64,000 nucleotides of DNA, taken from assembly GCA_018652475.1 (NCBI GenBank), contig JABICB010000013.1, forward strand, positions 244 to 64,243, given 5' to 3'. The notes below the pieces were generated by a model. That model did no database searches. It saw nothing but the letters and a program-made list of their open reading frames with translations, and had not been told where the DNA came from. Positions 27,533 to 64,000 of the stretch are shown here, in pieces; the stretch's first letter is position 1, and the number at the start of each line of letters is the position of its first letter. The DNA comes from an archaeon (GTDB taxonomy: Archaea; Nanobdellota; Nanobdellia; SCGC-AAA011-G17; PNOQ01). The position numbers and the translations under genes were made by a program.

Positions 27533-28344
27533 TGATTACAAGCCCCCATCACTTCATTAGCAGGACCAATATACATTCCTGACACAAAGCCTGTTTTCCT
27601 ATGGAGATCATCATGTGCCAAGATAAGGGCTCCAGCAATACCGCAAGTATACGCTGCAACAGTTAAAGTCGTACCAAATGTGAAAAATGCGGCGGCGGCG
27701 GAAGCAATACATCCTATTCCCGCAGTAACTGTTTCAAAAGTATCTGATTCAAACTCATATCTCTTATCGGCAAAAAATACAACATAAAGCGGCTCAGTAG
27801 TAGAATAATTATCAGTTTCACTAATTTGTCCCACACTAGTATCAGCATAAATATAGTCAAATAAACTCTGTTCTTCCCTGAAGGGGAGTGGCTCTGTGGC
27901 CAGATATTTCATCAACCCGCTAATCTGAGGAGTTTCCTCTTGAATTTTATCACTAAATTCAATCCTGGAACAGATAAAACAATAATTATTACCAGTTCCC
28001 CAATCCCAATCATCTAGAAAATCCCTTTCACCTTTTGCAAATTGATACCAACAATCATACATTTCATTAGAAATTTCAGATTTTATACCTTCTTCATTTA
28101 AATTTTTTATTTTTAATTCATGAGTTTCGCATGCAAGATTTTCGAAAGTAGTTGTTCCTAACAGTTTACTTTGTGCTCTTAAAAAAACACTATCTCTGCA
28201 AGCTTCACGGCTAACACTATCTTCAGCAAAAGGTCCAAATTCAAACAAAAAAAAATAAATGAAAATACCCATTGCCAACATAAGTACTATTACTCCTGCA
28301 ATAGTCATAGCCATCTCGCCTTTTTTAGATACCAAACAATCCAA
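27529..28344 (-). CDS. Pilin-like protein with a class-III signal peptide.
   Basis: MDCLVSKKG|EMAMTIAGVIVLMLAMGIFIYFFL shows a KKG|E cleavage context. An AAAAA stretch and Cys residues occur in the mature part. Confidence 0.5.
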   Translation of the reverse strand: MDCLVSKKGEMAMTIAGVIVLMLAMGIFIYFFLFEFGPFAEDSVSREACRDSVFLRAQSKLLGTTTFENLACETHELKIKNLNEEGIKSEISNEMYDCWYQFAKGERDFLDDWDWGTGNNYCFICSRIEFSDKIQEETPQISGLMKYLATEPLPFREEQSLFDYIYADTSVGQISETDNYSTTEPLYVVFFADKRYEFESDTFETVTAGIGCIASAAAAFFTFGTTLTVAAYTCGIAGALILAHDDLHRKTGFVSGMYIGPANEVMGACNQ

Positions 28345-37414: not shown

Positions 37415-39601
37415 ATGCCAAATATTAAAAATTTCAAACCACGATTATATCAAGAAACGATATTATCTAGTTGTACGGAAAAAAATACATTAGTAGCACT
37501 TCCTACTGGATTAGGAAAAACCAAAACTGCCATACTCGTTGCAATAGATAGGTTAAACAAATATTCAAATTCTAAAATACTTTTTCTTACACCTACCAAA
37601 CCTCTTGCAACTCAAATATATAATGAATTCAGAGATTGCACAGATATAAAAGAAATTGAATTATTTACTGGTGCAATTTCACCAGAAAAAAGAAAAGAGT
37701 TAGCTAAATCTGCAAAAATAATTATAAGTACTCCTCAGAGCATAGAAAATGATGTAATAAATAATACATTTAAATTTGATGATGTCTCCTTGATTGTTTT
37801 TGATGAGGCACATAGAGCTATACAAAATTATTCATATACTTGGTTAGCAAAAAAATACAACTCTTCTTCAACAAATTCAAGAATAATAGGATTAACTGCA
37901 TCGCCAGGTGCAGATTTAGAAAAAATAAAAGAAGTTTGTAATAATTTGTACATAAAAAACATTGAAGTAAGGACAGAGAATGATCCAGATGTTAAGGAAT
38001 ATGTACAAAAAACTGAAGTAGAATGGATAAAGATTAATCTCCCTGAAGAATTTAAAGAAATAAGAAACTTTTTACAAAATGCATTTTCAAGTAAATTAAA
38101 AAAATTAAAAGAAGGGGGCTATAGCCTCAATGCTAATGTCTCAAAAAAAGAATTATTAGGGATTATGGCATCATTGAGAGGAGAAATATCAAAAGGAACA
38201 AATGATTATAATATTTTTTCTGCCATTTCTTCAACAGCGGAAGCAATAAAAATTAATCATGCATTGGATTTAATAGAAACACAAGGAATACATTCATTAT
38301 ATTCTTACCTAAAACCAATAATAGGAAATAAGGGACAAACAAAATCTGGAAAAAATCTAGCATTAGACATAAATATGAAATCTGCATTTATTCTTTCTGA
38401 AAAATTATACGAACAAAAAATAAATCATCCAAAATTATCAAGATTAAAAGAAATAATAAAAGAAGAAATTGAAAAAAATCCAAAAACAAAAATAATAGTA
38501 TTTAATCAATACAGAGATTCTGCCAAAAGAATAGAAAACGAACTAATTGAATTAGAAAATGTTAGACCAAAACTTTTTGTAGGACAACTAAAAAAGAAAG
38601 GAACTGGATTATCGCAAAAAGAACAAATAAATATTATAAATGAATTTAAAGAAGGCATTCATAATTGTATAATTTCTACATCCATAGGGGAGGAGGGACT
38701 AGATATTCCCAAAGTCAATACAGTAATTTTCTATGAACCTGTGCCTTCAGCTATAAGGAGCATACAGAGAAGGGGACGTACAGCAAGACATACAAAAGGA
38801 AAAGTGATAGTACTAATGACTAAAAACACTCGCGATGAAGCTTATCATTGGACTGCAGTAAACAAAGAGAAAAAAATGTATTCTATATTAAATGAATTAA
38901 AACATGGATTCAAATTAAATCCCCAAAAACAATTAAATGCCTTTGAAAAAAAAGAAGAATTAAATATTTATGCAGATTCAAGAGAGCAAGGTTCAACAAT
39001 ATTAAAAGAGTTGGTAGATTTAGGAATAAATATTACTACAAAAACACTACCTACTGCAGATTTCATAGTATCTTCAAGAGTTGGAATTGAAAGAAAAACC
39101 ATAAGGGATTTTGTAGATTCAATCATAGATAAAAGATTATTTGATCAATTGAAAAATTTAAAAGCTAATTTTGAAAAACCCTTAATAATTTTAGAAGGAG
39201 AAGAAGATATTTATTCAATAAGAAATATTCATGCAAATTCTATCAGAGGAATGTTAGCAACAATAACCATATCATATGGAATACCTCTGATCCAAACAAA
39301 AAACACAAAGGAAACTGCACAACTATTAAGATCAATAGCGAAAAGAGAACAAATTCAGAAAGAAAAAACCTTTAATCTAAATCTAGAAAAAAAACCTCTA
39401 ACTACAAGGGAATTACAAGAATATATCATCAGTTCCCTCCCCACAATAGGACCAACGCTTGCAAAAGCATTACTAAGGGAATTCAAAACAGTAAAGAATA
39501 TAATAAATGCAAAATCAAATCAATTAGAAAAAATTGAAAAGTTAGGAAAGAAAAAAACAAAAATCATAAAGGAAATAATAAATGAACAATATGATTCTTA
39601 A
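37415..39601 (+). CDS. hef: Hef (helicase-associated endonuclease for fork-structured DNA): DEAH helicase plus ERCC4 nuclease plus HhH2.
   Basis: Walker A LPTGLGKT, DEAH (VFDEAHRA) and helicase motif VI QRRGRTAR are present. The C-terminal ERCC4 motif is ADSREQGS...GIERKTIRDFVDSI. Terminal HhH repeats are (SLPTIGPTLAKALL...). Confidence 0.85.
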   Translation: MPNIKNFKPRLYQETILSSCTEKNTLVALPTGLGKTKTAILVAIDRLNKYSNSKILFLTPTKPLATQIYNEFRDCTDIKEIELFTGAISPEKRKELAKSAKIIISTPQSIENDVINNTFKFDDVSLIVFDEAHRAIQNYSYTWLAKKYNSSSTNSRIIGLTASPGADLEKIKEVCNNLYIKNIEVRTENDPDVKEYVQKTEVEWIKINLPEEFKEIRNFLQNAFSSKLKKLKEGGYSLNANVSKKELLGIMASLRGEISKGTNDYNIFSAISSTAEAIKINHALDLIETQGIHSLYSYLKPIIGNKGQTKSGKNLALDINMKSAFILSEKLYEQKINHPKLSRLKEIIKEEIEKNPKTKIIVFNQYRDSAKRIENELIELENVRPKLFVGQLKKKGTGLSQKEQINIINEFKEGIHNCIISTSIGEEGLDIPKVNTVIFYEPVPSAIRSIQRRGRTARHTKGKVIVLMTKNTRDEAYHWTAVNKEKKMYSILNELKHGFKLNPQKQLNAFEKKEELNIYADSREQGSTILKELVDLGINITTKTLPTADFIVSSRVGIERKTIRDFVDSIIDKRLFDQLKNLKANFEKPLIILEGEEDIYSIRNIHANSIRGMLATITISYGIPLIQTKNTKETAQLLRSIAKREQIQKEKTFNLNLEKKPLTTRELQEYIISSLPTIGPTLAKALLREFKTVKNIINAKSNQLEKIEKLGKKKTKIIKEIINEQYDS

Positions 39602-40818
39602 GAAACGGCCATTATATCGACAGTTTTAGATCCAGAAACACCTATCTGACTACTATCTTTCGCACCTATATCTTCTTTATTAGATATGAAAAAGTACTCT
39701 GAAATTAATTTACCGTTAGCGTCATGTATAGTCAACTTAAGTGTTTCTTCCCTAGGTATAATCACAGTTTTGATAGTATCTTTAATTTTAGTAACCTTTC
39801 CGGTCTTAAAACAAGTGAACATCTTTTCTATGGGTTCAAAAAAAACAACTGTTTTTTCATCACCTAAACCAGAAGATTCCATCCTCATGGAGGAACCTTC
39901 CTCAATATGAGCTTCCTTTCCATCAGGAAAACCAAAAGACTCCTCTACTGAGATAATAGTACAATTATTTGACTCACATTCAATATCAACCAATAATATA
40001 TCTTCTGGCACCTCAGGTTTGGCACTTGAAGAAGTAATATCATATATCAATTCAGATAAAATATATTCATCAAAAAGACCATAGGTTTTTCCATCCCTGT
40101 GCCAATAATCTCTCATTATGCCTTCTTTAACAGAACGAGAATATTCAAAATTTGTACAACCGGCAATACAACTAGTATTATCAACACTATCAAATTTAGA
40201 GCAAGAATCCATATCAGAATCACAATTAGGAGCATCCCACCAAATTGAAATACCTTCTTCAGTATATTCTTCTGCAAAATTTCCAAAAGCATGACCCATT
40301 TCATGAGCAAGAACTAACGGATCATCTGCAGTATTAATGGCCATCACTTTCTGATAAGTGCTAGATCTTAACCAGTTTATTAAATTATAAACTCCATCAA
40401 TATCTGTTAAAACAACAAAATAATCATGAGGACAAATAGAAGATGCCCTAACTATTTTTCCAGTATTACACAAGATATAACCTTTGTCCCACTCACACCC
40501 ATAATCTTCAAAATTTTCTATCCTATAAAAATTAAATTTATCCCTATTCGAATTAAATGGTTCTACTTTTAACAATTCCTCTTTCCAAAAATAAGTATCA
40601 TCAATAAATTCTCCTACAGAATCATAATTAGTACCTAAAAACACTATATCAATATTAGTTTCAGATGGACCTGTTGAATCTACAATCACACACCCCGGGA
40701 GGGGGTCAATAGGTGCCCTAACAAAAGTACCATTACTCCAAAAAATAAAAGAAAACAATATTATTACACCTATAATGAACAATATAAATGGCCAAATAGA
40801 TTGTTTTTTACCAAACAT
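39598..40818 (-). CDS. Membrane-anchored/secreted zinc metallopeptidase, M64 (IgA-peptidase)-like.
   Basis: Signal anchor IWPFILFIIGVIILFSFIFW. The zincin motif VLAHEMGHAFGNFAEEY fits the M64 pattern HE.GH.F..L.DEY. It has many Cys residues. Confidence 0.55.
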   Translation of the reverse strand: MFGKKQSIWPFILFIIGVIILFSFIFWSNGTFVRAPIDPLPGCVIVDSTGPSETNIDIVFLGTNYDSVGEFIDDTYFWKEELLKVEPFNSNRDKFNFYRIENFEDYGCEWDKGYILCNTGKIVRASSICPHDYFVVLTDIDGVYNLINWLRSSTYQKVMAINTADDPLVLAHEMGHAFGNFAEEYTEEGISIWWDAPNCDSDMDSCSKFDSVDNTSCIAGCTNFEYSRSVKEGIMRDYWHRDGKTYGLFDEYILSELIYDITSSSAKPEVPEDILLVDIECESNNCTIISVEESFGFPDGKEAHIEEGSSMRMESSGLGDEKTVVFFEPIEKMFTCFKTGKVTKIKDTIKTVIIPREETLKLTIHDANGKLISEYFFISNKEDIGAKDSSQIGVSGSKTVDIMAVS

Positions 40819-40850
40819 TAATAGAAAAATAGAATAAAATATATATAAAT

Positions 40851-41384
40851 CTATTTATTGAACTTTTTTAAGATATTATATTTTTGATTACCTTTAGCAG
40901 AAACACTTTCCATTAATGTAAATTTATCAATGAGAAATTCCTTAGATGAAAACTTCAATTCAGAAATATACTCTTTAAACTTTTCTTTTTTTATCAACTT
41001 TATTCTTCCTAAAGAAACATGAGAAGAAAAAATTTGAATATGGGGTGATATTTGAAGTAGTTCAGCATCAATCTTCTGCTGTAAGGAAATTATATCTTTC
41101 TTAGAAAAAATATCAACATATATCACAGAAGGATTATTATTTTTATAAAAAAGTTTAACATTGACTAATTTCAAAGTGAATGGTTCAAAAACAATATTTC
41201 CTAATGTCTTCTGAATTATATCTAATTCTGAATCAGAAACTTCTCCAAGCTGTTTCAAAGTTATGTGTAAATTTTTCTTTGCCACCCATTGAATCTTTGC
41301 ATACCGTTTATCAAATGAATTTTGTAGGTTAAATAAATTATCTTTGATTTCTGGTGGTAATTCAAGAGATATGAATGACTTCAT
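40851..41384 (-). CDS. 2H phosphoesterase (LigT-like RNA 2',3'-cyclic phosphodiesterase / 2'-5' RNA ligase).
   Basis: Two H-x-(T/S)-x motifs are present: NLHITLKQLG and SSHVSLGRIK. The size, 177 aa, fits. Confidence 0.6.
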   Translation of the reverse strand: MKSFISLELPPEIKDNLFNLQNSFDKRYAKIQWVAKKNLHITLKQLGEVSDSELDIIQKTLGNIVFEPFTLKLVNVKLFYKNNNPSVIYVDIFSKKDIISLQQKIDAELLQISPHIQIFSSHVSLGRIKLIKKEKFKEYISELKFSSKEFLIDKFTLMESVSAKGNQKYNILKKFNK

Positions 41385-41485
41385 TTTTTTTGAAAAAGTT
41401 CCCTATGTTTTTTTTCGCCAAACAGAACCCAATAAATTGCCAATATACCTATAATAGATAACATAAATAATAAAGCATCTTGCAT

Positions 41486-42601
41486 TTAACCAACCATCCC
41501 AATATTATGATTACTTTCTATTTCAGTATTAGTTAATTTATCAACTGCAAGAGAAAAATCTTCATGTTTAACATGTTTTCTTTTTTGTCTTATTGCGAAA
41601 TATCCCGCCTCAGTACATAGGGCTTTTATATCTGCTCCAGAAAATCCATCTAATAATTTATCTATTTCAGAATAATTAACTTTATTTAATTTCATATTTT
41701 TAGAATGAATCTTAAAAATTTCTGCCCTTGCCTCCTTGTTAGGTAGAGGAACTTCAATTAATCTATCTAATCTACCTGGTCTAACAATGGCAGGATCAAG
41801 TATATCAAACCGGTTTGTTGCACCAATAATCTTTACATCACCCAATGAACTAAACCCATCTATCTCTGCCAATAATTGCATCAATGTTCTTTGTACTTCT
41901 TTTTCACCAGAGGTACCATTATTGGTTCTTTCTGAAGCAATAGCATCTAATTCATCTATAAATATTATAGAAGGACTTCTCTCCTTTGCTAACTTGAATA
42001 TATCCTTAACAAGTTTAGCACCATCTCCTATAAATTTCTGTACTAATTCAGAACCAACAACTTCGATAAAAGTAGAGTTTGTACTTGCAGCTATAGCCTT
42101 AGCAAGAATAGTTTTTCCAGTACCACTATATCCATATAATAAAACTCCTTTTGGAGGGATGATACCTACATCCTTGAAAAGTTGAGGATTTTTCAAAGGT
42201 AACTCAATAACTTCTTTAATCTCCCTAATTTGATCAGACAATCCCCCAATAGTTTCCCAATTAACTTCCGGTTTTTCAATTCTCACAAATTTTTCAACAT
42301 CAAATTTTCTTTTCTGACCTGCCTTTGCAACAATATTTAATGATTTTTGTTCAGACAAAACAGAATCGCCTGGTTTAAGTTTTCCAATAAGCGGTGCTGA
42401 AATAGTTACTAAAAATTTATTTCCATTTGGTAATTTTACTACTGCGCCCTTATCAGTAATACTTGTTACTTCACAAAGAATCAGAGGGGGCAGCCTAAAT
42501 TTATCTATTTCAGATTTTAATTTTATTATGGTTTTATTTAATCTAACATTTTCTTCTATTGCCGAATAGTTGATCACCTTCTTTCTCCCACAAAATACCA
42601 T
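41486..42601 (-). CDS. pan: Proteasome-activating nucleotidase (PAN; AAA+ ATPase).
   Basis: An N-terminal coiled coil and OB domain are followed by the AAA core. Walker A is GVLLYGYSGTGKT and Walker B is IIFIDELDAI. A second region of homology and the C-terminal HbYX-type tail region are also present. Confidence 0.9.
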   Translation of the reverse strand: MVFCGRKKVINYSAIEENVRLNKTIIKLKSEIDKFRLPPLILCEVTSITDKGAVVKLPNGNKFLVTISAPLIGKLKPGDSVLSEQKSLNIVAKAGQKRKFDVEKFVRIEKPEVNWETIGGLSDQIREIKEVIELPLKNPQLFKDVGIIPPKGVLLYGYSGTGKTILAKAIAASTNSTFIEVVGSELVQKFIGDGAKLVKDIFKLAKERSPSIIFIDELDAIASERTNNGTSGEKEVQRTLMQLLAEIDGFSSLGDVKIIGATNRFDILDPAIVRPGRLDRLIEVPLPNKEARAEIFKIHSKNMKLNKVNYSEIDKLLDGFSGADIKALCTEAGYFAIRQKRKHVKHEDFSLAVDKLTNTEIESNHNIGMVG

Positions 42602-42654
42602 AACACAAACGTAAACTCTACCAGATTTATAAACTTTTATCTTGTAATTATTAT

Positions 42655-43008
42655 ATGAATGAAAAACAAGAAATAAGATTGTTATTATTTATTATCACGT
42701 TAGGAATATTCTTATTATTTTTTATGAATAATCTATTAGATTTTGCCCCACAAACTATAGGCGAAACATTTCATCAAGAGATAGGATCAGAAGTGACAAC
42801 AATAGGAGAAATAGAAAAAATAATTAATAATAAAAATTTGACTATAATTACAATTAAAGATGAGAATGAAAGAATAAAAATAATTCTCTTTGAAGAATTA
42901 AATACTATATCAAAACAGGATATTATAGTAGTTAGGGGAACACTCATATCATATAAGGGAGAATTAGAAATAGAGGCAACAGAAATAAAAAAAATAACAA
43001 AAGTGTAA
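42655..43008 (+). CDS. Membrane-anchored OB-fold-like small protein (hypothetical).
   Basis: N-terminal TM LLLFIITLGIFLLFFM. The C-terminal ~70 aa resemble a nucleic-acid-binding OB fold (IVVRGTLISYKGELEIEATEI). Confidence 0.3.
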   Translation: MNEKQEIRLLLFIITLGIFLLFFMNNLLDFAPQTIGETFHQEIGSEVTTIGEIEKIINNKNLTIITIKDENERIKIILFEELNTISKQDIIVVRGTLISYKGELEIEATEIKKITKV

Positions 43009-47589: not shown

Positions 47590-47901
47590 TTACCATCCAG
47601 AATCATCATTTGAAAATATATTTTTTAAAGCAGGTATTGGATTTAAACTTTCAAAAGAAAAATCGCCAAACAAATCACTTTCCTTAAATACATCAATTAC
47701 TGCTGCACCAGTCATAACAAATGAATTATTTTCCATAACATTATTTTCAGTACCTAATCCTTCAAATACTAAAAATAACACAACCAAAAATAATACGCCT
47801 ATCATAATAAAATGAAATAGCGATTTTGTAAATAAATGTTTTACTGACTCTAATACAACCACCAATAAAACAAAGGATATGATAATATAAATTAAATTCA
47901 T
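47590..47901 (-). CDS. Hypothetical small membrane protein.
   Basis: Two TM helices within 103 aa. Confidence 0.3.
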   Translation of the reverse strand: MNLIYIIISFVLLVVVLESVKHLFTKSLFHFIMIGVLFLVVLFLVFEGLGTENNVMENNSFVMTGAAVIDVFKESDLFGDFSFESLNPIPALKNIFSNDDSGW

Positions 47902-48330
47902 ATTATCATTTATAAAATTAACACTATATAAATTTATTCATATTTACCGAAGACCCTCTGACCTCAATTGCTATTGGAAAAGAAATTATTAAAAAATAAA
48001 GGTTTATGTTCTCTCAAATATTCTTTAAATAAAGAATAGCTCATTTTTGTTTTTTTTACTGATTTTTTTTGTAAGTTAAATTATTATACTACAGCTTTTG
48101 TAAGTATAATATATTAAAGAATTTATTATATATATATATATTTTATTTTTAAGTTTTTTTATTGTATATTATATATTATAGAAACTAAAAATAAAATAAA
48201 AAAAATAAAAAAACAACACCTACTTTTGAAATAAAAGGTTCCACCAGAAATAAGGGTCTCAGAGTAAATATTTAATAAGAATAGTCAATAATAATAATCC
48301 TTAAATAACAAATTCAGTTCATATTATAAA
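47902..48330. promoter_or_regulatory. Putative replication origin (oriC) and cdc6 promoter region.
   Basis: This is the longest non-coding gap in the window. It has an AT-rich core with (TA)n at about 48127-48141. An ORB-like element, gTTCCAcCaGAAAtaaGGGtct, lies at 48238-48262. It resembles the archaeal Orc-binding box (TCCAGTGGAAAC...GGGG) as I recall it. An inverted partial copy (agaCCCTct) lies at 47951-47960. The gap is immediately upstream of cdc6-polD, the conserved oriC neighbourhood. Confidence 0.45.
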
Positions 48331-49533
48331 ATGGGTGGATCAATTACAGATTTTTTCAAAGGATATCTAGAAAAAGAAAGATTGTTTACTAATAAAAAAG
48401 TATTACAAATGAATTATACTCCAGAAACAATACCTCATAGAGAAGAACAAATAGAAGAAATTTCAAAGATATTAGCACCCTCTTTAAAATTAGAAAGACC
48501 TTCAAATATGTTTATTTATGGAAAAACAGGGACAGGAAAAACATTATCAGTAATTAAAGTACTAAATAGTTTGAAAGAAGTTGCAAAAATAAAGAACATA
48601 CCTTTAGATATATTGTATGTAAATTGTAAATTAAAAAATGTTGCAGATACAGAATATAGATTAATAGCACATATAGCTAGGGAATTTGGAGAAGATATAC
48701 CTATTACGGGATTGCCTCGTAATGCCATATATAGTAAATTATTTAAAAAATTAGAAACCAAAAAAAGATTAGTAATTCTGGCATTAGATGAAATAGATCA
48801 AATAGTCAAAAAACAAGGTGATGAAATATTATACACTCTAACAAGGATAAATACTGAATTAGAAAATGCACAAGTATGTTTTATTGGCATTTCTAATGAT
48901 TTGAGATTTGCAAGTGAATTAGATCCTCGTATAAAATCTTCATTAACAGAAGAAGAAATGAATTTTCCACCATACAATGCAATACAATTAAGAGATATTT
49001 TATCAAATAGGGCAAATTTAGCATTTAAAGAAAACTCTGTAAAGGAAGGAGTAATAGAAAAATGTGCAGCATTGGCAGCAAGAGAACATGGGGATGCTAG
49101 GCGAGCTTTAGATTTATTAAGGATAGCAGGAGAATTAGCAGAAAGAGAAGACAATATTGAGATAAATATAAGTCATATAGATACTGCTGAAGAAAAAATG
49201 GATAAAGAAATTGTAATAGATGCAATAAAAACACTACCAAAACAATCCCAATTGGCGTTATTATCAACTTTTTTATTGAATTCAAGAAAAAAGAAGTATT
49301 ATACTGGTGATGTTTCTGAAGAATATAAAAAATTATGTTTTACAGTGGGATTAAAACCTTTATCGCATAGAAGATTATCAGATTTAGTTGAAGAATTAGT
49401 AATGTTAGGAATAATAAGATCAAAAATAGTTAGTAAAGGAAGATATGGTAGGAAAAAGGAAATTTCTGTAAATCTACCTCCTTCAAATATACCTAATCTA
49501 ACTGATCAACTCAAAACATGGTTAAATTTATGA
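48331..49533 (+). CDS. cdc6: Cdc6/Orc1 replication initiator.
   Basis: AAA+ Walker A is GKTGTGKT, Walker B is ILALDEID, and sensor motifs are present. A C-terminal winged-helix follows. The N-terminus has the typical LF.NK.VL...Y.PE.IPHRE.Q start. Confidence 0.9.
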   Translation: MGGSITDFFKGYLEKERLFTNKKVLQMNYTPETIPHREEQIEEISKILAPSLKLERPSNMFIYGKTGTGKTLSVIKVLNSLKEVAKIKNIPLDILYVNCKLKNVADTEYRLIAHIAREFGEDIPITGLPRNAIYSKLFKKLETKKRLVILALDEIDQIVKKQGDEILYTLTRINTELENAQVCFIGISNDLRFASELDPRIKSSLTEEEMNFPPYNAIQLRDILSNRANLAFKENSVKEGVIEKCAALAAREHGDARRALDLLRIAGELAEREDNIEINISHIDTAEEKMDKEIVIDAIKTLPKQSQLALLSTFLLNSRKKKYYTGDVSEEYKKLCFTVGLKPLSHRRLSDLVEELVMLGIIRSKIVSKGRYGRKKEISVNLPPSNIPNLTDQLKTWLNL

Positions 49534-51017
49534 ATGAAAAATTAATTCATCTTTTTTTAAAGAGGGGGGTCTTAATAAGTCCCAATATTGTAAAAGATTT
49601 AGATATTGAGAAAAGTGATAATTTTTTCAAAATATTAGATTCTGAAATATTATCAAAAGAGAAATCACCATACTTATTATCTAGTGAAAAATTTAATGAG
49701 ATTTTAAAAAAATCAATAATTTCTGATAATGAAATGCATTCTGAACCTCTAAAAAATAAAGGAAATATAATTATATTAAAAGAATATCAAGAAAATACAG
49801 ATAAAAAAACTGTAAAAGATTTTACTGCCCATTATAAAAATAGATATGAAAAATTAAAAGGACTGTTGCAGGGAAAGAGAAATTTACAAAATGTAATATC
49901 TATAAATAGGGCGTTAAATAAAAAACAAAGAGAGGAAGTATCTGTAATTGGGTTAATATCTGATAAACATATAACTAAAAATAAAAACATTTTATTAAAA
50001 TTAGAAGATCCTACTGGGTCTATTTCTGTACTAATAAACCAAAACAAAGAAGATTTATTTGAAGAAGCATATAATTTAACACTAGATGAAGTAATAGGGA
50101 TAACTGGTTCAATGGGAAATAAAATTGTATTCTCTAATGAATTAATTTTACCTGGTTATCCAATCCATAATGAAATAAAAAAATCAAATGAAGAAGTATA
50201 TATGGCTGTGTTGTCTGATATTCATGTGGGTTCAACCATGTTTTTAGAAGAAGAATTCAAAAAATTCATAAATTGGACCAAGGGTAATGAAGGAAATGAA
50301 GAACAAAAAAAAATTGTCAAAAAATTAAAATATATATTTATAGTGGGTGATTTGGTGGATGGAATAGGAATTTATCCTGGTCAAGAAGATGAATTAAACA
50401 TATTAGATATAAAAGATCAATATTCCAAATTTACAGAATTAATAAAAGAGATAAGGCCGGATATAAATATAATAATTTGTCCTGGGAACCATGATGCAGT
50501 AAGAATAGCAGAACCTCAGCCAAAAATAAGTAAGGAATTAACAAAATCATTATGGGATCTACCTAACGTGACTATGTTAACAAATCCTGCCACAGTGAAT
50601 ATTCATTCAAATGAAAAAGAAGAGGGTTTTGATATATTATTATATCATGGATATAGCTTAGATTATTATATAAATAATATTGATAAAGTTAGAAATGGTG
50701 GCGGTTATGACAAACCAGAGGTCGCAATGAAATATTTATTGTCAAAAAGGCATTTAGCTCCAAGCCATGGATCTAGTTTATTTATACCTGGCAAAGAAGA
50801 TCATCTTGTTATAGAAAAAATTCCAGATTTTTTTTTAATGGGTCATGTTCATAAATCCGGAATAGATCAAGCAGGAAAAACAACTTTAATATGTGGTAGT
50901 TGTTGGCAATCTATAACACCTTTTCAAGAAAAAGTAGGTCATAAACCAGAAACATCTAAAGTACAGTTAGTAAATTTACAAACCAGAAAAATAAAGGTGA
51001 TGAATTTTGGAAAATAA
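49518..51017 (+). CDS. polD1: DNA polymerase II (PolD) small subunit DP1 (calcineurin-like phosphoesterase).
   Basis: Phosphoesterase motifs are GDLVDGIG, CPGNHDAVR and GHVHKSG. The OB fold precedes them. It overlaps the cdc6 stop by 16 nt. Confidence 0.9.
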   Translation: MVKFMNEKLIHLFLKRGVLISPNIVKDLDIEKSDNFFKILDSEILSKEKSPYLLSSEKFNEILKKSIISDNEMHSEPLKNKGNIIILKEYQENTDKKTVKDFTAHYKNRYEKLKGLLQGKRNLQNVISINRALNKKQREEVSVIGLISDKHITKNKNILLKLEDPTGSISVLINQNKEDLFEEAYNLTLDEVIGITGSMGNKIVFSNELILPGYPIHNEIKKSNEEVYMAVLSDIHVGSTMFLEEEFKKFINWTKGNEGNEEQKKIVKKLKYIFIVGDLVDGIGIYPGQEDELNILDIKDQYSKFTELIKEIRPDINIIICPGNHDAVRIAEPQPKISKELTKSLWDLPNVTMLTNPATVNIHSNEKEEGFDILLYHGYSLDYYINNIDKVRNGGGYDKPEVAMKYLLSKRHLAPSHGSSLFIPGKEDHLVIEKIPDFFLMGHVHKSGIDQAGKTTLICGSCWQSITPFQEKVGHKPETSKVQLVNLQTRKIKVMNFGK

Positions 51018-54000
51018 TATTGCAACAAGCAAGGAAATGAAAGAATATTTCAAATATATTGAAAAATATCTAGAATCCTCTTATTTATTGGCAAATAAAG
51101 CAAGAAAAAGAGGATTTGATCCTTCTCTGGAAGTAGAAATTCCGGTTGCATCAAATATGGCAGAAAGAGTAGAAAAATTAATTGGAATCTTAGCTCCAGA
51201 GATTGTAGGTAATGGAATACCTGAAAGGATAATTGAATTAGAAAAAGTATATAATAAACTAGATTGGAGAGTAGCATTCACCATCTCTCTAGAGGTGGCC
51301 GAAGAAAAATTTTGTAAATTTGAAAATAAACAAAAAGCAATAGAAACTGGATTAAGAATTGGATTTGCATATGTTACTACTGGCGTAGTAGCTAGTCCAG
51401 TAGAAGGATTTACTAAATTAACTTTACCCAAACGAAAAAGCGACGGTAAGGAGTATTTCTGTTTATATTTTTCGGGACCAGTAAGGAGTGCAGGTGGAAC
51501 AGCCGCATCAGTATTTGTATTACTTTCCGATTATGTAAGAAAAAAATTAGGTTATGCTAAATATGACCCTACTGAAAAAGAATCAAAAAGGGCAGTAACT
51601 GAACTAAGAGATTATCATGAAAGAGTAACTAACCTACAATATTTTCCTTCAGATATGGAAACAGAATTTATGGCAGCACATATGCCCATACAGATATCGG
51701 GTGATCCAACTGAAAAAATGGATGTTTCAAACTATAAGGATTTAGATAGGATAGAAACAAACAGAATAAGGGGAGGTTTTTGTCTAGTTATGGGTGAATG
51801 TCTTGCTCAGAAAGCAAAAAAATATGCAGCAAAACTCACAGAATGGGGTTCTGATTTTGAGATGGAAGATTGGGATTTTATTCAGGACTTTGTCAAATTA
51901 CAGAAAAAGATAAAGGCAGGAAAACAGTCCAAAAAAGAATCAGATGAAAAAATAACTGCTGATTATACTTTCATAAAAGATATGGTTGCAGGGAGACCAG
52001 TATTAACTTACCCTAATGAAAAGGGGGGTCTAAGATTAAGATATGGTAGATCGAGAAATACAGGTTTAAGTTGTGCAGCAATACATCCAGCGACAATGAA
52101 ATTATTAAATGGATATATAGGTGTAGGTACACAACTAAAAATGGAGAGGCCAGGAAAAGGTACTGCATTAAGTGTAACTGATTATATTGAAGGCCCAATA
52201 GCAAAATTAAAAAATGGCGAAGTGGTTTTTGTAGAAACAGAAGAGATAGCAGATAACATAAAAGATGATGTACAAGAAATATTATTTTTAGGAGACATAT
52301 TAGTCAATTATGGAGATTTTTTTGACAGAGCACATTCATTAGTACCTGTAGGTTATTGTGAAGAATGGTGGATAAAGGAACTAAAAAATAAAGAAAAAGA
52401 TAATACTAAGATATCTGAACTAACAAAGATAGAATTACCATTAATAAATAAATTATTTATGGATCCTATCAAAACAAAAATAACACCACTCCAGGCACAA
52501 AACATATCAATAAAATTAAATATACCCTTTCATCCAAAATTCACATATCATTGGGAAGATATTTCTCCAAAAGAATTTTTATTTTTAATTGAATGGTTAA
52601 CTAGATCTGTAATAAAAAGAAATGAAGATAAAATAATATTACCTATTTCAAATAATGATCAGGAAGTTACAGAAAAAAGAATTCTTGAAAAATTAGGAGT
52701 ACCTCATAAATATGTAACCAAGGAACACATTATTTTAGAAGGAAACTGGGCAAAAGCCTTTTTAATAAATTTAGGATTAGAAACAAATGAAGATAATCTA
52801 AAAAAATTAGTAGGGAAAGTATCTGAATCAAAATCAATATTAACAATATTAAATAAAGTTTCTTCAGTAAAATTAAGAAATAAATCCGGAACAATAATTG
52901 GAGCAAGGATGGGGAGGCCAGAGAAGGCAAAAATACGAAAACTAACAGGAAGCCCCCATTCTTTGTTTCCCGTGGGTGAAGAAGGAGGAAGATTAAAGAG
53001 TTTTGAATCAGCATTAGAAAAAAATCAAATAACTGAAAATTTTCCAATAAGAAAATGCACACATTGTAATAATGACACAGTATATAATTTATGTGAGAAC
53101 TGTGGAAAAGAAACAGAAAAATTATTTTATTGTAGGGAATGTAATTCTGAATATACTGCAGATTACTGTAAAATCCATAAAATAGAGTTAAAAAGTTTCA
53201 AAAGAAAGAGTATAGATATAAGTAAATATTATTTCTCAACAAAGAAAAAATTAAAATTAACTCAAATGCCCAAATTAATCAAAGGAATAAAAGAAACAAC
53301 AAACGAAGAACATATTCCTGAAAATTTAACAAAAGGAGTATTACGTTCAATTCACAATTTATTCGTAAATAAAGATGGCACTATAAGGTATGATATGACT
53401 GAACTACCTTTAACTCATTTTAATGCTGAAGAGATTGGTACCTCAATAGAGAAACTAAAGGAGTTAGGGTATTCTTTAGATATATATGGTAATGAAATAG
53501 TGAATGATTCCCAAATTATAGAATTAAAACCTCAGGATGTAGTTTTGGCATCATGTGATAAGGCTATGGAAGGGGGCGCAGACCATATACTATACAGGGT
53601 AGCAAATTTTGTTGATGATCTCTTAAATAAATTTTATGGCATAGATAAGTTTTACAATTTAAAATCAAAAAAAGATCTCGTGGGTCATTTGATTCTAAGT
53701 TTAGCACCTCATACTTCCGCAGGAATAATAGGGAGGATAATTGGATTTTCAAAAACACAAGGATGTTATGCTCACCCTCTCTGGCATAGCGCACAGAGAA
53801 GAGATTGTGATGGTGACGAAAACGGGATAATGTTATTAATGGATGGATTATTAAATTTTTCAAAACATTTCTTACCTAATCGAAGAGGTTCAACTCAAGA
53901 TGCCCCTTTGGTATTAACTTCAAAATTAATTCCTACAGAGGTAGATGATATGGTATTTAATATGGATGTAGTTTCAGAGTATCCCTTAGAATTTTATGAT

Positions 54001-54567
54001 GCTTGTATGGAATATAAAATGCCTTGGGAGGTTCCGATTGAACGATTGAACGATCGGTTAGAAACGGAAAAACAATTCGAGAAATATTGGTATACTCATG
54101 AAACAAGTTCAATAAATCAAGGCATAGTTCATAGTGCATATAAGTCTCTTCCTTCAATGCAAGAAAAAGTTTTAGGGCAGATGGACATAGCAGAGAAAGT
54201 AAGGGCAGTATATGAAGCAGATGTTGCAAGATTAATAATAGAGAAGCATTTTATTAGAGATATAAAAGGTAATCTTAGGAAGTTTTCAATGCAACAATTT
54301 AGGTGCGTAGGTTGCAATACAAAATACCGTAGACCTCCACTAAAAGGAAACTGTTTGAAATGTGGAGGAAAAATAATATTAACCATTTCAGAAGGTTCTG
54401 TGGTAAAATACCTAAAACCTTCCCTGGACTTAGCAAATAAATACGATATTCCCGAATATTTGAAACAAACGTTACAAATAACAAAAGATAGGATAGAAAG
54501 TGTATTTGGGAAAGAATTAGAACGTCAAGAGGGGCTAACTAATTGGTTTACTCAAAATAAAAAATAA
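51007..54567 (+). CDS. polD2: DNA polymerase II (PolD) large subunit DP2; no intein.
   Basis: At 1186 aa it has conserved DP2 blocks, including the Zn-binding CxxC clusters (CTHCNND...CENCGKE; CVGCNTKYRRPPLKGNCLKCGG) and the catalytic region AQRRDCDGDENG. It overlaps the DP1 stop by 11 nt. Confidence 0.9.
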   Translation: MENNIATSKEMKEYFKYIEKYLESSYLLANKARKRGFDPSLEVEIPVASNMAERVEKLIGILAPEIVGNGIPERIIELEKVYNKLDWRVAFTISLEVAEEKFCKFENKQKAIETGLRIGFAYVTTGVVASPVEGFTKLTLPKRKSDGKEYFCLYFSGPVRSAGGTAASVFVLLSDYVRKKLGYAKYDPTEKESKRAVTELRDYHERVTNLQYFPSDMETEFMAAHMPIQISGDPTEKMDVSNYKDLDRIETNRIRGGFCLVMGECLAQKAKKYAAKLTEWGSDFEMEDWDFIQDFVKLQKKIKAGKQSKKESDEKITADYTFIKDMVAGRPVLTYPNEKGGLRLRYGRSRNTGLSCAAIHPATMKLLNGYIGVGTQLKMERPGKGTALSVTDYIEGPIAKLKNGEVVFVETEEIADNIKDDVQEILFLGDILVNYGDFFDRAHSLVPVGYCEEWWIKELKNKEKDNTKISELTKIELPLINKLFMDPIKTKITPLQAQNISIKLNIPFHPKFTYHWEDISPKEFLFLIEWLTRSVIKRNEDKIILPISNNDQEVTEKRILEKLGVPHKYVTKEHIILEGNWAKAFLINLGLETNEDNLKKLVGKVSESKSILTILNKVSSVKLRNKSGTIIGARMGRPEKAKIRKLTGSPHSLFPVGEEGGRLKSFESALEKNQITENFPIRKCTHCNNDTVYNLCENCGKETEKLFYCRECNSEYTADYCKIHKIELKSFKRKSIDISKYYFSTKKKLKLTQMPKLIKGIKETTNEEHIPENLTKGVLRSIHNLFVNKDGTIRYDMTELPLTHFNAEEIGTSIEKLKELGYSLDIYGNEIVNDSQIIELKPQDVVLASCDKAMEGGADHILYRVANFVDDLLNKFYGIDKFYNLKSKKDLVGHLILSLAPHTSAGIIGRIIGFSKTQGCYAHPLWHSAQRRDCDGDENGIMLLMDGLLNFSKHFLPNRRGSTQDAPLVLTSKLIPTEVDDMVFNMDVVSEYPLEFYDACMEYKMPWEVPIERLNDRLETEKQFEKYWYTHETSSINQGIVHSAYKSLPSMQEKVLGQMDIAEKVRAVYEADVARLIIEKHFIRDIKGNLRKFSMQQFRCVGCNTKYRRPPLKGNCLKCGGKIILTISEGSVVKYLKPSLDLANKYDIPEYLKQTLQITKDRIESVFGKELERQEGLTNWFTQNKK

Positions 54568-56770: not shown

Positions 56771-57400
56771 ATGTCAGAATTAAAAATAAAAAGATCTTTT
56801 GGTAAAGTAAAGGAAGACATAAACACTCTAACTACTAAAATTATAGCAATAGAGGCTAAATTAGATAAGATTCTTGATAAATTAACTGAAAAAACAGGGA
56901 AAATAACCAATTCTGTAGAATTTGAAGAGAAGAGGGCTCCTCCTGTAACATTACAAAAAAGTTCCACTGGAAATATAGGGGCTCAATCATTCAATCATTC
57001 ACTAGACAATCAATCATTCACTAATCAAACAACAACTAATCCTAAATCAACCATTCATTCACTAAACATTCAATCATTAAAAAAAGATATAGATTCTGCC
57101 TTTTCTAGCCTTACTAGTCAAGAATTCCTAGTATTTCTGACTATTTATCAATTAGAGGAAGATTATAGTAGGGGGATAACTTATGGTGATCTATCCTCAA
57201 AAATAGGCCTTTCGGAAGGGTGTATAAGGGGATATGTCAGCAGTATAATTAGAAAAAATATACCCCTGGACAAGGTAAAAATCAATAATAGAACTATCAC
57301 CTTACGAATAAAACTCGATTTTAGGGAATTAAATTTAAAAGAAAGACTCACAAATATGTATTATCATCTAGATCCTCATCAAAAAAGACTCTATTTGTAA
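56771..57400 (+). CDS. Coiled-coil plus C-terminal HTH regulator (paralog of 57466..58020).
   Basis: An N-terminal helical region, then a Q/S/N-rich low-complexity linker (QSFNHSLDNQSFTNQTTTNP), then a C-terminal HTH (LTSQEFLVFLTIYQLEEDYSRGITYGDLSSKIGLSEGCIRGYVSSIIRKNIPL). Confidence 0.4.
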   Translation: MSELKIKRSFGKVKEDINTLTTKIIAIEAKLDKILDKLTEKTGKITNSVEFEEKRAPPVTLQKSSTGNIGAQSFNHSLDNQSFTNQTTTNPKSTIHSLNIQSLKKDIDSAFSSLTSQEFLVFLTIYQLEEDYSRGITYGDLSSKIGLSEGCIRGYVSSIIRKNIPLDKVKINNRTITLRIKLDFRELNLKERLTNMYYHLDPHQKRLYL

Positions 57401-58020: not shown

Positions 58021-58801
58021 ACCCTATCTTATAAATACTTATTATTAAACTTTTTGTTTTTTTGAATGCATTCAAGCGTTCAATTGGAGAATAGGGTAGT
58101 TATAATTAAGAAATATTTGAAGTTCATGTGTTCAAGAGGATATTTATTTATCAAGTTATGATTACTTCTAACAATAAATTTAAATATTAGAAAATTAAAA
58201 TATACTCTGTGAATCAATATGGTCAAGAGAAAAAAAATAAAAAAAAGTGTTCAAAAAAATAATATTTTTCACCATATATTATTGAATAGAATACTATTGA
58301 TAATAGGAATCATTATCATAATGAATGGGTTATGGTTTAATGATATTAGATGGGCATTATTAGGGTTAATACCTATATTCATTGGATATGTACACATAAA
58401 AAGATGGCAAAAAAAATACTAAATTGGAAGTGGATCAAGGAAAATTTTTGGAATGTTTTCATGATATTAATTATATTAAACATAATATCTACAATTATTC
58501 TTTTAATATTTCAATTGATTTTTCCTTCTATGTCAATAATCTAGTAAGGGCACTATACTAGAAGAAAATAACCTTATTTCATTTCATTTTTTTATAATTT
58601 TTTACGATTACTTCTTTTTAGAGTAGATTAATACTTTTAATCCCAAATATTTGCCATAAAATTGACGAATTTAGGACATTTTTTATTCTTTTAGGGATTA
58701 TATTTGAAAAAAATAAAAATCTATCTAAAACGGGCTTATTTTGGCTCAACACATTTATCAGATTCAGAAAAACAACAATCACAACAATCAAATAAAAATT
58801 A

Positions 58802-59518
58802 TTGTATTTTTTCTCAAAACACCATAATTCTACTAATTCTATGGTGAAAATAGCCCCAAAACGCAACATATATAAAGAACTATTGCGAAAAATAAGTATG
58901 TTTAAAGAAAGTAAATCTCAGAGTTCTAGGAATAAATCAAAGTATAATATTTACTATTTACAAATGCCAGAAATAAACAAAATAATTGATGCTGCAAAAA
59001 ATTTAAGGGATGCAACTGTAATAAAAATTTTGGCAAGAACTGGGATGAGGAGATTTGAATTATGTCATATTAAAGTACAAGATATAGATTTTGAAAAAAG
59101 AAGAATTTTTATTTCAAAAGCTAAGGGAAATAAACAAAGAACTGTACCAATAGATCAAGATACGTTACAAACAATTCGGTTTTATATGAGGTCTCGACAA
59201 TACGGTAAACTAATACAAAGTAATAAGAAAAATGTAGATGGGATTGATGAAAGTAGGATAAACGCAATAGTGAAGAATACTGCTCTTAGGGCAGGAATAA
59301 AGCACCCTGATCCATCGAAAAAAAACATGAACCCTCATATATTCAGGCACAGTTTTATACGTCATTTGATCAAACAAAATGTACCTCCCAATTACGTTCA
59401 ACAAATAGCTGGACATGCAGATATAAGGACCACATTACAGATGTATGGTATTCCTGGAATTTCAGATGTTCAAGAAAAATATGAGGAAATTTCTAGTACT
59501 TTTTATAATAATCCTTGA
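58802..59518 (+). CDS. Short tyrosine recombinase/integrase: catalytic domain only, with no core-binding N-domain. The likely real start is the ATG at about 58841.
   Basis: Box I Arg is in VIKILARTGMRRFELCHIKVQDID. K is in SKAKGNKQRTVPI. Box II is HIFRHSFIRHLIKQNVPPNYVQQIAGHADIRTTLQMY (H-x-x-R ... catalytic Y). Confidence 0.8.
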   Translation: MYFFSKHHNSTNSMVKIAPKRNIYKELLRKISMFKESKSQSSRNKSKYNIYYLQMPEINKIIDAAKNLRDATVIKILARTGMRRFELCHIKVQDIDFEKRRIFISKAKGNKQRTVPIDQDTLQTIRFYMRSRQYGKLIQSNKKNVDGIDESRINAIVKNTALRAGIKHPDPSKKNMNPHIFRHSFIRHLIKQNVPPNYVQQIAGHADIRTTLQMYGIPGISDVQEKYEEISSTFYNNP

Positions 59519-61872: not shown

Positions 61873-61920
61873 ACAAAAGTTTTTTAAGGCAAAATTTAAC
61901 CTATTATTTAATTATTTTTT

Positions 61921-61995
61921 GGGCTCATAACTCAGCCTGGTCAGAGTGCATGGCTCTTAACCATGAAGCCGCGGGTTCGAATCCCGTTGGGCCCA
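61921..61995 (+). tRNA. tRNA-Lys (anticodon CUU).
   Basis: Hand-folded cloverleaf. The acceptor GGGCTCA pairs with TGGGCCC. D-arm ACTC/GAGT. Anticodon stem CATGG/CCATG with loop CTCTTAA, anticodon CTT. T-arm GCGGG-TTCGAAT-CCCGT. Discriminator A. Followed by T9. The G+C content is far above the local background. Confidence 0.85.
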
Positions 61996-62077
61996 TTTTT
62001 TTTTAACACAAATCATAGAAAGGTTTAAATAAATAAATAAATAATGCATTCTTATTATATTTAAGTGGTGATAATTT

Positions 62078-64000
62078 ATGAACATTAAAAAGAAAAGTAT
62101 GTGGATATTGTTGGTATTATTATTTGGTTCTATTTTTTTCATTTCTGAATCAGTTAAAGCAGATAACGATTGGCTAAATGTCGAAAAGCCTGCTGGCAAA
62201 ATAAATGTAGATGCACAAGATTTAGAAGTATCACCAATTAATTCTTGGCGAAATATTTATTGTGGTAAAACTCTTTGTGGTTATGCAGGGGAATGTGCCA
62301 ATAATGAAATGTGCCAGGTTAGAAAAAGATGGGTATGGCCAAGGCCTCATATTCAAGAATCATCTAGAAGTCCGATCAATATTCAAAAGATAAATACAAA
62401 AAGGATTACCGCTATTGAAGATAGTATAAATATTAATGAACAAGTAGATAAATTAGAAGATGAAAAAAATATATTAAAAAATTTAAGATATTATTTTTTT
62501 AATCAATTCAGATGTCACGAATCAACACTTTGTGTAAATTCGTGTGAAGATGGAGTTGACAATGATGGTGATGCCAATTTAGATGCAGTAATAATTGAAT
62601 CTGCGGAAACATATTTTGAAGAAAATAATATTCAAGGAGTCAGTCTTTCTGAAGAAAATTGTAATAATAGTGGAGAGGATCCAAGAACTGAAGAAAGTAA
62701 TTGTATGTTATTATTCAATGATGCATATGATGATCCGGAATTTCTGATTAGTGGAATGGGGGCATGCACAAATGAAGAGATACAAGGGCAGACAAGAGAA
62801 ATAGTAGTACCTTATTCAGAAAATTGTGATCCTAATTATAATAGGGTGTCAGTTTCGAATCCAATTTATGAAGCATTCGGAGACATACTAGATAATTCAA
62901 ATTTATGTGAATCTGCCTTTACTTGGTGTTGCATAGATATGTCTTCAGAGGCATATAATAATACTGGAGTGATAGGTGGAGTAAATAATTTCAGATATTG
63001 CGGGGATGGCTACTGTCAAGGGTGGCAAGGCGGCATTTCCACAGGAAATGAATCAGATTTAGAAGAAGGTTGGACTTTGGAAACAGCAGAATCACATTTT
63101 AGTTGTTCATGGGCAGATTCCACTGGAACGATTAATCATGATTGTACTTCTACTGGGATAGATTGTGATTGGATTCAGTGGGTAGGTCAAGAAGATTATG
63201 AGTCTTGTCAAAGTGGAGATTTAACTGAAATAGATGGAAGTGAAGTTCAAATAAATTGGATAAATTCTACGGGCTGTAGTTTTGGAGAGCATAGGAGATC
63301 TTGTACAGTTGGAGGTTTTCATTGGACTGAGTGGGATTTTTGTGATGGTATAAATCCAACAGAATATAATTATGAAGAAACTTGTAATGATAATTTAGAT
63401 GGAGATTGTGACGGAGATACAGATAGTTATGATGCTGACTGTGGTAGTTGTATAGATGGAACAATTGAAAATCAGCAATGTGGGGTATCTAATATAGGGC
63501 AATGTGCAATGGGTGTAGAATATTCAGACTGTACCTTTACTGGTAGATTTTGGGAACAAGGCTCATGGCATGATTGTACTGCGACTCTTCCAGATGTCGA
63601 ACAATGTAATGATGGAATAGACAATGACTGTGATGGTGATATAGATAGTTTAGATGAAGAATGTGGCAGTTGTATAGATGGAACACTTGATACACAATCT
63701 TGTGGGGAAACAGAGATAGGTATTTGTACCTTGGGTACAGAATATTCAGACTGTGAATATAATTCAGATACCGACAGATGGAATTATGGGGGATGGTATG
63801 GTTGTACTGCAACTTTCCCACAAACAGAGCAATGTAATGATATAGATAGTTTTGATGAAGATTGTGATGGGACTTCAAATGACGAAGATGAAGAATGTGG
63901 CAGTTGTGTCATGGGTGATAGCCTAGATAGATCTTGTGGAAATTCAGAGATAGGTATTTGTACCTTGGGTACAGAATATTCAGACTGTGAATGGACTGGA
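62078..64000 (+). CDS. Secreted Cys-rich repeat protein with MopE-like (CxDxDxDCDG) putative metal/Ca-binding modules. The 3' end is partial and runs off the window.
   Basis: Not in the ORF track because there is no stop within the window. I translated it manually. Signal peptide MNIKKKSMWILLVLLFGSIFFISESVKA. Repeated modules are CNDGIDNDCDGDIDSLDEECGSCIDGT...SCGETEIGICTLGTEYSDCE. A GGTGA SD lies 8 nt upstream. Confidence 0.6.
   Translation, partial: MNIKKKSMWILLVLLFGSIFFISESVKADNDWLNVEKPAGKINVDAQDLEVSPINSWRNIYCGKTLCGYAGECANNEMCQVRKRWVWPRPHIQESSRSPINIQKINTKRITAIEDSININEQVDKLEDEKNILKNLRYYFFNQFRCHESTLCVNSCEDGVDNDGDANLDAVIIESAETYFEENNIQGVSLSEENCNNSGEDPRTEESNCMLLFNDAYDDPEFLISGMGACTNEEIQGQTREIVVPYSENCDPNYNRVSVSNPIYEAFGDILDNSNLCESAFTWCCIDMSSEAYNNTGVIGGVNNFRYCGDGYCQGWQGGISTGNESDLEEGWTLETAESHFSCSWADSTGTINHDCTSTGIDCDWIQWVGQEDYESCQSGDLTEIDGSEVQINWINSTGCSFGEHRRSCTVGGFHWTEWDFCDGINPTEYNYEETCNDNLDGDCDGDTDSYDADCGSCIDGTIENQQCGVSNIGQCAMGVEYSDCTFTGRFWEQGSWHDCTATLPDVEQCNDGIDNDCDGDIDSLDEECGSCIDGTLDTQSCGETEIGICTLGTEYSDCEYNSDTDRWNYGGWYGCTATFPQTEQCNDIDSFDEDCDGTSNDEDEECGSCVMGDSLDRSCGNSEIGICTLGTEYSDCEWTG
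63400..64000. repeat. Intragenic tandem repeats of about 240 nt (at least 3 copies) in the Cys-rich protein gene.
   Basis: Exact 45-nt matches gagataggtatttgtaccttgggtacagaatattcagactgtgaa occur at about 63706 and 63946. gaatgtggcagttgt occurs at about 63661 and 63895, and a similar copy at about 63430-63540. Confidence 0.7.

Follow-up and report, generated by a model that had tools for sequence, protein, structure and literature searches.

The 64-kb stretch of archaeal DNA analysed here (64,000 nucleotides; hereafter, the window) holds, immediately upstream of a gene for the replication initiator Orc1/Cdc6, an AT-rich non-coding gap that an earlier reading of the sequence had put forward as a putative chromosomal origin preceding a cdc6–polD operon (the original prediction). 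Is this gap, then, the place where replication of the chromosome begins, or does it only resemble one? We consider it highly probable that positions 47902–48330 are oriC, an Orc1-dependent chromosomal origin of a Woesearchaeota-type DPANN archaeon; a computational prediction that we make because an Orc1-1-class gene lies alongside, because the gap contains an inverted pair of origin recognition boxes (ORBs) with the least stable DNA of the window, a putative duplex unwinding element (DUE), between them, because this architecture recurs in 51–60 of 60 relatives and because there is a local switch in nucleotide skew. The elements concerned are as follows:

47902–48330, gap, 429 bp, 82% AT (window 71% AT, ~29% GC)
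47956–47981, minus strand, distal (left) ORB, TTTTCCAATAGCAATTGAGGTCAGAG on the minus strand
47982–48236, no strand, DUE, 255 bp, 86.7% AT, between the two ORBs
48139–48180, no strand, AT-only core block of 42 nt, TATTTTATTTTTAAGTTTTTTTATTGTATATTATATATTATA
48237–48262, plus strand, proximal (right) ORB, GGTTCCACCAGAAATAAGGGTCTCAG
48331–49533, plus strand, orc1/cdc6 initiator gene, 400 amino acids (aa), Orc1-1 class; Pfam Cdc6_C, Cdc6_lid and AAA

An inverted pair of ORBs in the gap

It had been suggested that the region be searched with an ORB motif model. We used a 26-nt position weight matrix (PWM) trained on 80 related Woesearchaeota/Nanoarchaeota loci, with the window and two contigs of the same species (L001 and L002) excluded, and scanned both strands of the 64 kb (~128,000 positions), taking chance levels from first-order Markov simulations. 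The top match of the whole window, at 22.5 bits (0.003 expected per 64 kb), is the proximal ORB, which occupies the interval from 94 to 69 bp before the orc1 ATG, with its dyad facing the DUE and its G-string directed towards orc1; this is the ORB-like element that had been recognised earlier at 48238–48262 (GTTCCACCAGAAATAAGGGTCT at 48238–48259, with a TTCCACCAGAAA core at 48239–48250). Its partner, the distal ORB, ranks fourth at 16.4 bits (0.12 expected per 64 kb), so that the motifs in the gap are statistically supported. The dyad of this second site (TTCCAATAGCAA on the minus strand, 47979–47968) adjoins the DUE and its G-rich end points outward, with a conserved tail continuing to ~47953 (ACCCTCTGACC on the plus strand). 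A part of it had been seen before, as a 'partial inverted copy' CCCTCT at ~47951: the hexamer is present, but is located at 47954–47959 and turns out to be the outer tail of the full ORB on the minus strand. The two ORBs are inverted with respect to each other and 255 bp apart, both lying inside a gap that makes up 0.7% of the window sequence; the right ORB has the TTCC and GAA cores, the left ORB TTCC and GCAA.

These are the only two sites in the gap to reach at least 3 bits with the PWM, and no other TCCA/TGGA dyads are visible in 47902–48330. Matches to the TTCCACCAGAAA 12-mer with up to two mismatches are no rarer than chance (15 in the window, 9.1 expected) and those to the generic archaeal dyad TTCCAGTGGAAA with up to three mismatches are at chance level (78 versus 82 expected); generic word searches therefore cannot alone support the claim of an origin. 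A general repeat search did not report the ORB pair, because its arms share only short exact seeds, and the AT-rich 'repeats' that it listed are low-complexity noise.

Outside the gap, ORB-like sites are found at 56960–56985 (plus strand, 20.6 bits) and 27583–27608 (minus strand, 19.9 bits), each inside a hypothetical open reading frame (ORF) without a Pfam match (56771–57400 and 27529–28344, respectively). The Markov simulations give 0.02 such sites per 64 kb, and related genomes have ~0.46 off-origin sites of at least 19 bits per 64 kb; those in the window could be chance occurrences or auxiliary Orc1 sites.

The least stable duplex lies between the ORBs

Nearest-neighbour energies (SantaLucia) calculated across the window place its least stable duplex inside the DUE at the 60, 100 and 200 bp scales, the minimum for 255 bp being 47980–48234; only 0.005% of segments of this length match the DNA between the two arms in instability. 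The (TA)n tract that had been remarked upon in the gap is here, as (TA)7.5 at 48127–48141 (tandem-repeat analysis with Tandem Repeats Finder, TRF). On the plus strand the DUE has T-tracts to the left and A-tracts to the right, switching at ~48180, a trend in polarity that is shared by 35 of 51 relatives (Wilcoxon p = 4e-4).

Within the DUE, the AT-only core overlaps the least stable 60 bp (48120–48179), and its centre, TTTTTAAGTTTT(T/A)TTATT, is found again in three related loci (L003, L005 and L008), at −205 to −217 relative to orc1. This block may be the site of melting and initiation, or a site for an accessory factor. A stronger version of the second possibility, that in DPANN archaea an accessory origin factor binds to the core and the two act as ucm and its binding protein UBP do at Sulfolobus origins, the core being more than merely DNA that melts easily, we regard as unlikely; if true, the accessory-factor core and the minimal two-ORB layout would together make up a stripped-down origin for ultra-small archaeal genomes. 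The Sulfolobus ucm itself, an 11-bp element (ATTATACAAAC), was looked for in the DUE and rejected, with at best 8 of 11 matches in a sequence that is 87% AT.

The arrangement recurs among relatives

Homologues of the window Orc1 number in the thousands, the closest being annotated as Woesearchaeota, Pacearchaeota, Nanoarchaeota or 'archaeon'. Scanning one genome per GTDB species yielded 80 orthologous loci from metagenome-assembled genomes (MAGs), with Orc1 identities of 54–71%. The gene for DP1, the small subunit of PolD, is directly downstream of orc1 in all 80; that for the large subunit, DP2, is then detected in 73, wherever the contig extends far enough, and PRC-barrel or LonB genes lie upstream, as they do in the window, in ~18. 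One relative, 96% identical (P0002), has a gene map of the same synteny and a gap of 418 bp.

When the 600 bp upstream of orc1 are compared, with the window left out, the k-mers TCCATAAGAA, TCCATAGGAA, GAAATCAAGG and AATCAAGGGG each appear in 10–21 loci against 0.1–0.5 expected from coding DNA (TCCATAAGAA in 21 loci, 0.1 expected). These k-mers give a clade ORB consensus of ~22–26 nt, tTTCCA-N-A-g-GAAAT-N-AA-GGgGTg, which has the classic ORB shape, TTCC and GAA cores followed by a G-string; the 'TTCC' and 'GAA' cores of ORBs are known to be perfectly conserved (PMC1904270). The motif is concentrated upstream of orc1: within 600 bp of the gene on that side, the regular expression TTCCANNNGRAA has a density of 3.06 per kb, which falls to 0.066 per kb in the rest of the loci, and when PWM matches reaching 14 bits or more are binned by 500 bp from −4000 to +5000, the bin −500..0 contains 175, −1000..−501 contains 17 and every other bin 0–2. 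Sixty loci extend 700 bp or more upstream of orc1; every one of them has a plus-strand ORB 20–300 bp upstream of the gene and 51 have an inverted distal ORB as well, with a median spacing of 275 bp and a median of 82% AT between the arms.

Footprinting against L003, the nearest sequenced relative (71% Orc1 identity), finds a gap that has largely diverged, with three conserved islands only: the left ORB with its ACCCTCTGACC tail, the right ORB (TTCCA...GAAATAAGGGTC) and the AT block 48139–48180, which is nearly identical in the two sequences. The left ORB is in register with the distal ORB of L003, and the ACCCTCTGACC block is identical at 11 of 11 positions.

A third class of ORB, on the minus strand, is found in the relatives (29 instances) and combines the dyad with a directly attached TATA-like box (TTCCA.A.GAAA.a.AGGTTTATAAA). 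These dyads, joined to a TTTATAAA box, lie 10–149 bp upstream of orc1 (at −30 in L022, −29 in L033, −31 in L054 and −29 in L077, for example); the fused box is absent from the window. Its position and sequence suggest an Orc1 operator at the orc1 promoter, and hence autoregulation within the clade.

It may also be remarked that in 21 of the 80 MAG contigs the upstream end is no more than 800 bp from orc1 (amongst them L006, L014, L021, L024, L030, L033, L037, L041, L043, L046, L056, L058, L060 and L079), far above expectation for contigs of tens of kb. The AT-rich DUE seems to be a point at which assemblies break, so that DPANN origins may be hidden systematically.

The neighbouring initiator is of the Orc1-1 class

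The best matches of the window Orc1 among solved structures are Orc1-1 of Sulfolobus solfataricus (2qby_A, 9e-96) and ORC1 of Aeropyrum pernix (2v1u_A, 6.5e-93), both of them ORB-binding proteins whose structures were determined on ORB DNA. The residues that contact DNA in solved Orc1–ORB complexes are kept, namely the Gly-Leu of the initiator-specific motif (ISM) together with arginines of the helix-turn-helix (HTH) and wing: by alignment, G120/L121 of the S. solfataricus ISM correspond to G127/L128 in the window protein, and R341 and R365, the arginines mutated in PMC3089459, to R347 and R371, a mapping that uses an inferred 11-residue offset between chain index and protein numbering. T126-G127-L128 of the ISM, R347 and R371 are invariant in 26 DPANN homologues. 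The conserved contacts fit a predicted recognition of an ORB whose dyad is the same as in Crenarchaeota and Thermococcales. Of 208 complete Nanobdellota genomes, 206 have ORC1 as a core gene in single copy (10.64898/2026.05.13.725050).

A local switch in skew and gene orientation at the gap

The cumulative GC skew reaches its minimum, within the 64 kb, at ~48 kb. Raw cumulative skew was rejected as sufficient evidence, since skew follows gene strand; for this reason the plus-strand skew of each gene was regressed on strand and on side of the gap. Alongside a strand effect of 0.168 there is an independent side effect of 0.058 ± 0.015, and a scan of split points gives the best t and the best fit at 48 kb (t = 3.9); leaving out the compositionally odd terminal ORF, and leaving out DP2, t for the side effect is 3.2 and 2.5. 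Gene orientation changes at the same place, the proportion of coding bases co-oriented with the fork being at its maximum, 74.6%, for an origin assumed at 48 kb. The GC skew of the coding strand at third codon positions (GC3 skew) is 0.37 for co-directional genes versus 0.13 for head-on genes (p = 2e-4).

Comparison with characterised origins

The design of the window is that of the standard archaeal replicator–initiator pair (PMC4010727, PMC5333045). At oriC1 of Sulfolobus, an ORB–DUE–ORB origin, Orc1-1 binds as one monomer per ORB, with defined polarity, and both inverted ORBs are individually essential, together directing MCM to the intervening DUE (PMC12141716). What the window has in common with that origin (ORB3–DUE–ORB2) is the pair of inverted ORBs around an AT-rich DUE beside an orc1-1 gene, the Orc1-1-class initiator and a conserved block within the DUE. 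The two differ in the length of the DUE region, which is ~130 bp in Sulfolobus and 255 bp in the window, and in that Sulfolobus possesses two additional origins, a third ORB and the ucm bound by UBP; nor is there a polD operon downstream in Sulfolobus, PolD being lacking in Crenarchaeota (PMC3914693).

It is with the Thermococcales that the window shares its gene order, oriC being placed directly upstream of cdc6, with DP1 and DP2 following co-directionally (PMC1904270, PMC2643942); linkage of cdc6, DP1 and oriC is documented for Thermococcales, Halobacteriales and Methanosarcinales (PMC2643942). Pyrococcus, too, has two long ORBs forming an inverted repeat around AT-rich DNA, and the dyad core TTCCA-NNN-GGAAAT-GAA is common with ORB1 of P. 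furiosus (reverse complement: TTCCAGTGGAAATGAAACTCTGGGGGG), although the DPANN G-string is ~5 nt closer to the dyad. In Pyrococcus there are also numerous mini-ORBs of 13 bp, and dp1 contains a second cluster of ORBs, whereas the window has neither: in its dp1 the best PWM match is 3.6 bits, at 50106, and in the relatives there is one match of at least 14 bits in the bins +1000..+2999 (1 in 118 kb for bins 1000–2500). Unlike in Pyrococcus, the RFC genes do not follow DP2, a place taken in the window by TctA (Pfam). The arrangement had been called Pyrococcus-type, a description that is borne out by the order of the genes and that does not extend to the mini-ORB array or the dp1 cluster.

The 22-bp ORB of Aeropyrum has a TCCA-NNN-GGAAA dyad and then a close GGGG(T) run, and its spacing would be as compact as that of the DPANN consensus; there are four ORBs at its oriC1, and a second origin. 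The initiator at Aeropyrum pernix oriC1 (ORC1–ORB complex, PDB 2V1U) is closely similar to that of the window (E = 6.5e-93).

Alternative explanations

Several observations weigh against the gap being an origin. The left ORB is off the consensus at two informative positions (GCAA for GAAA and GAGG for GGGG), and two ORBs are fewer than most characterised origins possess. The ORB-like sites outside the gap match the scores of those within it, so that a single ORB match is not diagnostic. The evidence from skew is local: it covers 64 kb, in which only ~12 genes lie to the right of the gap, and gene orientation is in part a confounder. Lastly, some archaea with an intact oriC and Cdc6 can do without them, as is the case for Thermococcus kodakarensis, which retains both and from which both can be deleted (PMC5663688).

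Could the resemblance be fortuitous, a piece of AT-rich intergenic DNA that happens to hold one ORB-like word? The failure of the 12-mer core to be enriched in the window, and of the repeat search to return the pair, would agree with this, but the idea is effectively refuted by a PWM trained independently of the window, for which the right-hand site is the best of 128,000 and the inverted partner the fourth best, the two lying within 0.7% of the sequence, and by the recurrence of the arrangement in 51–60 of 60 relatives. The gap might instead be a divergent promoter and nothing else, its ORB-like boxes acting as operators, for Orc1 or for another factor, at orc1–polD and the leftward gene, whilst replication starts elsewhere. 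Both boxes do lie just upstream of TATA-like sequences belonging to the two divergent genes, the 29 TATA-fused dyads of the relatives look like autoregulation and Orc1 paralogues can regulate transcription (PMC9738581). Regulation and origin function are, however, compatible with each other; the TATA-fused box is the very element that the window lacks; and a promoter would leave unexplained the conserved inverted pair, 250–300 bp apart around the least stable DNA of the window, the conserved AT core and the switch in strand-corrected skew and gene orientation. We think a promoter without origin function very improbable.

Precedent from T. kodakarensis also allows for a genuine origin that is dormant or dispensable, with the chromosome replicated mainly by recombination-dependent or otherwise origin-independent means. 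Against such a state stand purifying selection, which acts on the ORB pair, on the distance between its arms and on the DUE core throughout a clade in which Orc1 is only 54–71% identical, the skew signal associated with the side of replication and the single-copy core status of ORC1 in complete Nanobdellota genomes (206 of 208; 10.64898/2026.05.13.725050); we hold it to be very improbable. An active origin in the gap is accordingly the reading that we prefer, and as originally predicted it lies upstream of cdc6–polD, with the ORB pair, the DUE, conservation in relatives, the local switch in skew and orientation and the Orc1-1-class neighbour all in its support.

A proposed mechanism

How the predicted origin may work can be sketched by analogy with Sulfolobus oriC1 and the oriC of Aeropyrum and Pyrococcus; the ORB polarity given here is described for the window only and is not claimed to match that of the model origins. 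One Orc1 monomer would bind each ORB with fixed polarity, its winged helix on the dyad and the ISM of its AAA+ domain on the G-rich side. Two oppositely oriented Orc1–ATP molecules would then load MCM onto the 255-bp DUE that separates them, melting would start in the AT core at ~48139–48180 and forks would leave bidirectionally, the rightward one travelling in the direction in which the orc1–DP1–DP2 operon is transcribed. At 69–94 bp upstream of the orc1 ATG, the proximal ORB may also couple occupancy by Orc1 to transcription of orc1–polD.

Flanking genes and other features of the window

The genes that adjoin the gap and orc1 are:

47590–47901, minus strand, divergent hypothetical gene, 103 aa, bounding the gap on the left (ORF list)
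49518 or 49530 to 51017, plus strand, PolD small subunit DP1; Pfam Metallophos, DNA_pol_E_B and OB fold
51007–54567, plus strand, PolD large subunit DP2; Pfam PolC_DP2_N, PolC_DP2_central and PolC_DP2_cat

Pfam has nothing for the 103-aa hypothetical, of which a weak homologue is found at the equivalent position in L003; a TATA-like TTTATATA box can be read directly ~24–31 nt before its ATG. To its left, all on the minus strand, are genes for a PRC-barrel protein, LonB and ArgRS (Pfam). On the other side, Pfam upholds the identities first given to cdc6/orc1, DP1 and DP2, and the overlaps that had been described, of the orc1 stop with the DP1 start and of DP1 with DP2, can both be read in the junction sequence. 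The orc1 stop codon (TGA, 49531–49533) is overlapped by an in-frame DP1 ATG at 49530; the start of DP1 is ambiguous, as ATG 49518 gives 499 aa and a 16-nt overlap, and ATG 49530 gives 495 aa and an ATGA overlap with the orc1 stop (public gene calls have the 495-aa form). DP2 starts with TTG at 51007, overlapping DP1 by 11 nt. Since the flanking genes are core housekeeping genes, the locus is chromosomal.

The AT-rich gap upstream of cdc6 fits its first description as non-coding, with at most 41 codons in any stop-free run of 47902–48330, and Rfam and tRNA scans identify no RNA gene in or near it, their only match being a tRNA-Lys at 61920. It had also been taken for the longest intergenic region of the window. 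Here the gap is real but its rank is not firm, as 58021–58801 (781 bp) has only ORFs of up to 83 aa; another candidate for a longer intergenic stretch, 61997–64000, was rejected as being a long ORF that runs off the window.

That 781-bp stretch lies directly upstream of a tyrosine recombinase (58802–59518, PF00589), with a tRNA-Lys(CTT) at 61920–61996, 2.4 kb beyond the recombinase; two readings of 58021–59518 are possible: that the recombinase is XerA, with a dif site close to the origin, or that an integrated element has its edge here. At 62078–64000, on the plus strand and continuing off the end of the window, is a large secreted Cys-rich repeat protein with a signal peptide, repeated CGxC...DxDCDG-like modules and no Pfam match; GC skew in this region is positive to an unusual degree (0.30–0.42), and GC content is locally raised, to 0.39 over the last kb. 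Up to 11 kb to the left of the origin, 37415–43008 encodes a Hef-type helicase–nuclease (DEAD + ERCC4 + HhH), a PAN-like AAA ATPase and a small OB-fold protein. PolD aside, none of the canonical replication genes for MCM, RFC, PCNA and primase were seen among the window ORFs scanned. Further to the left, two large overlapping minus-strand ORFs (28478–32886), one of 709 aa without a Pfam match and one of 760 aa with a T2SSE/FlaI-type secretion ATPase domain, may form part of a pilus or archaellum-like system.

Implications

Woesearchaeota and their relatives are uncultured. In the literature library that was searched, no paper treats origin recognition boxes and DPANN together; a 2026 preprint on Nanobdellota rotated its genomes to ORC1, with ORBs and skew not analysed (10.64898/2026.05.13.725050). 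A clade-wide ORB consensus and a fixed ORB–DUE–ORB layout provide a coordinate by which genomes can be oriented, as well as a reference point for estimating growth rates from the peak-to-trough ratio of metagenomic coverage, and the consensus defines oligonucleotides with which Orc1 binding can be assayed. These results leave the present view of archaeal replication unaltered and extend it to a new lineage, which will not surprise the specialist: on the reading preferred here, the ancestral Orc1-1/ORB system, and the linkage of oriC, orc1 and polD, would persist almost unchanged in the reduced genomes of DPANN archaea.

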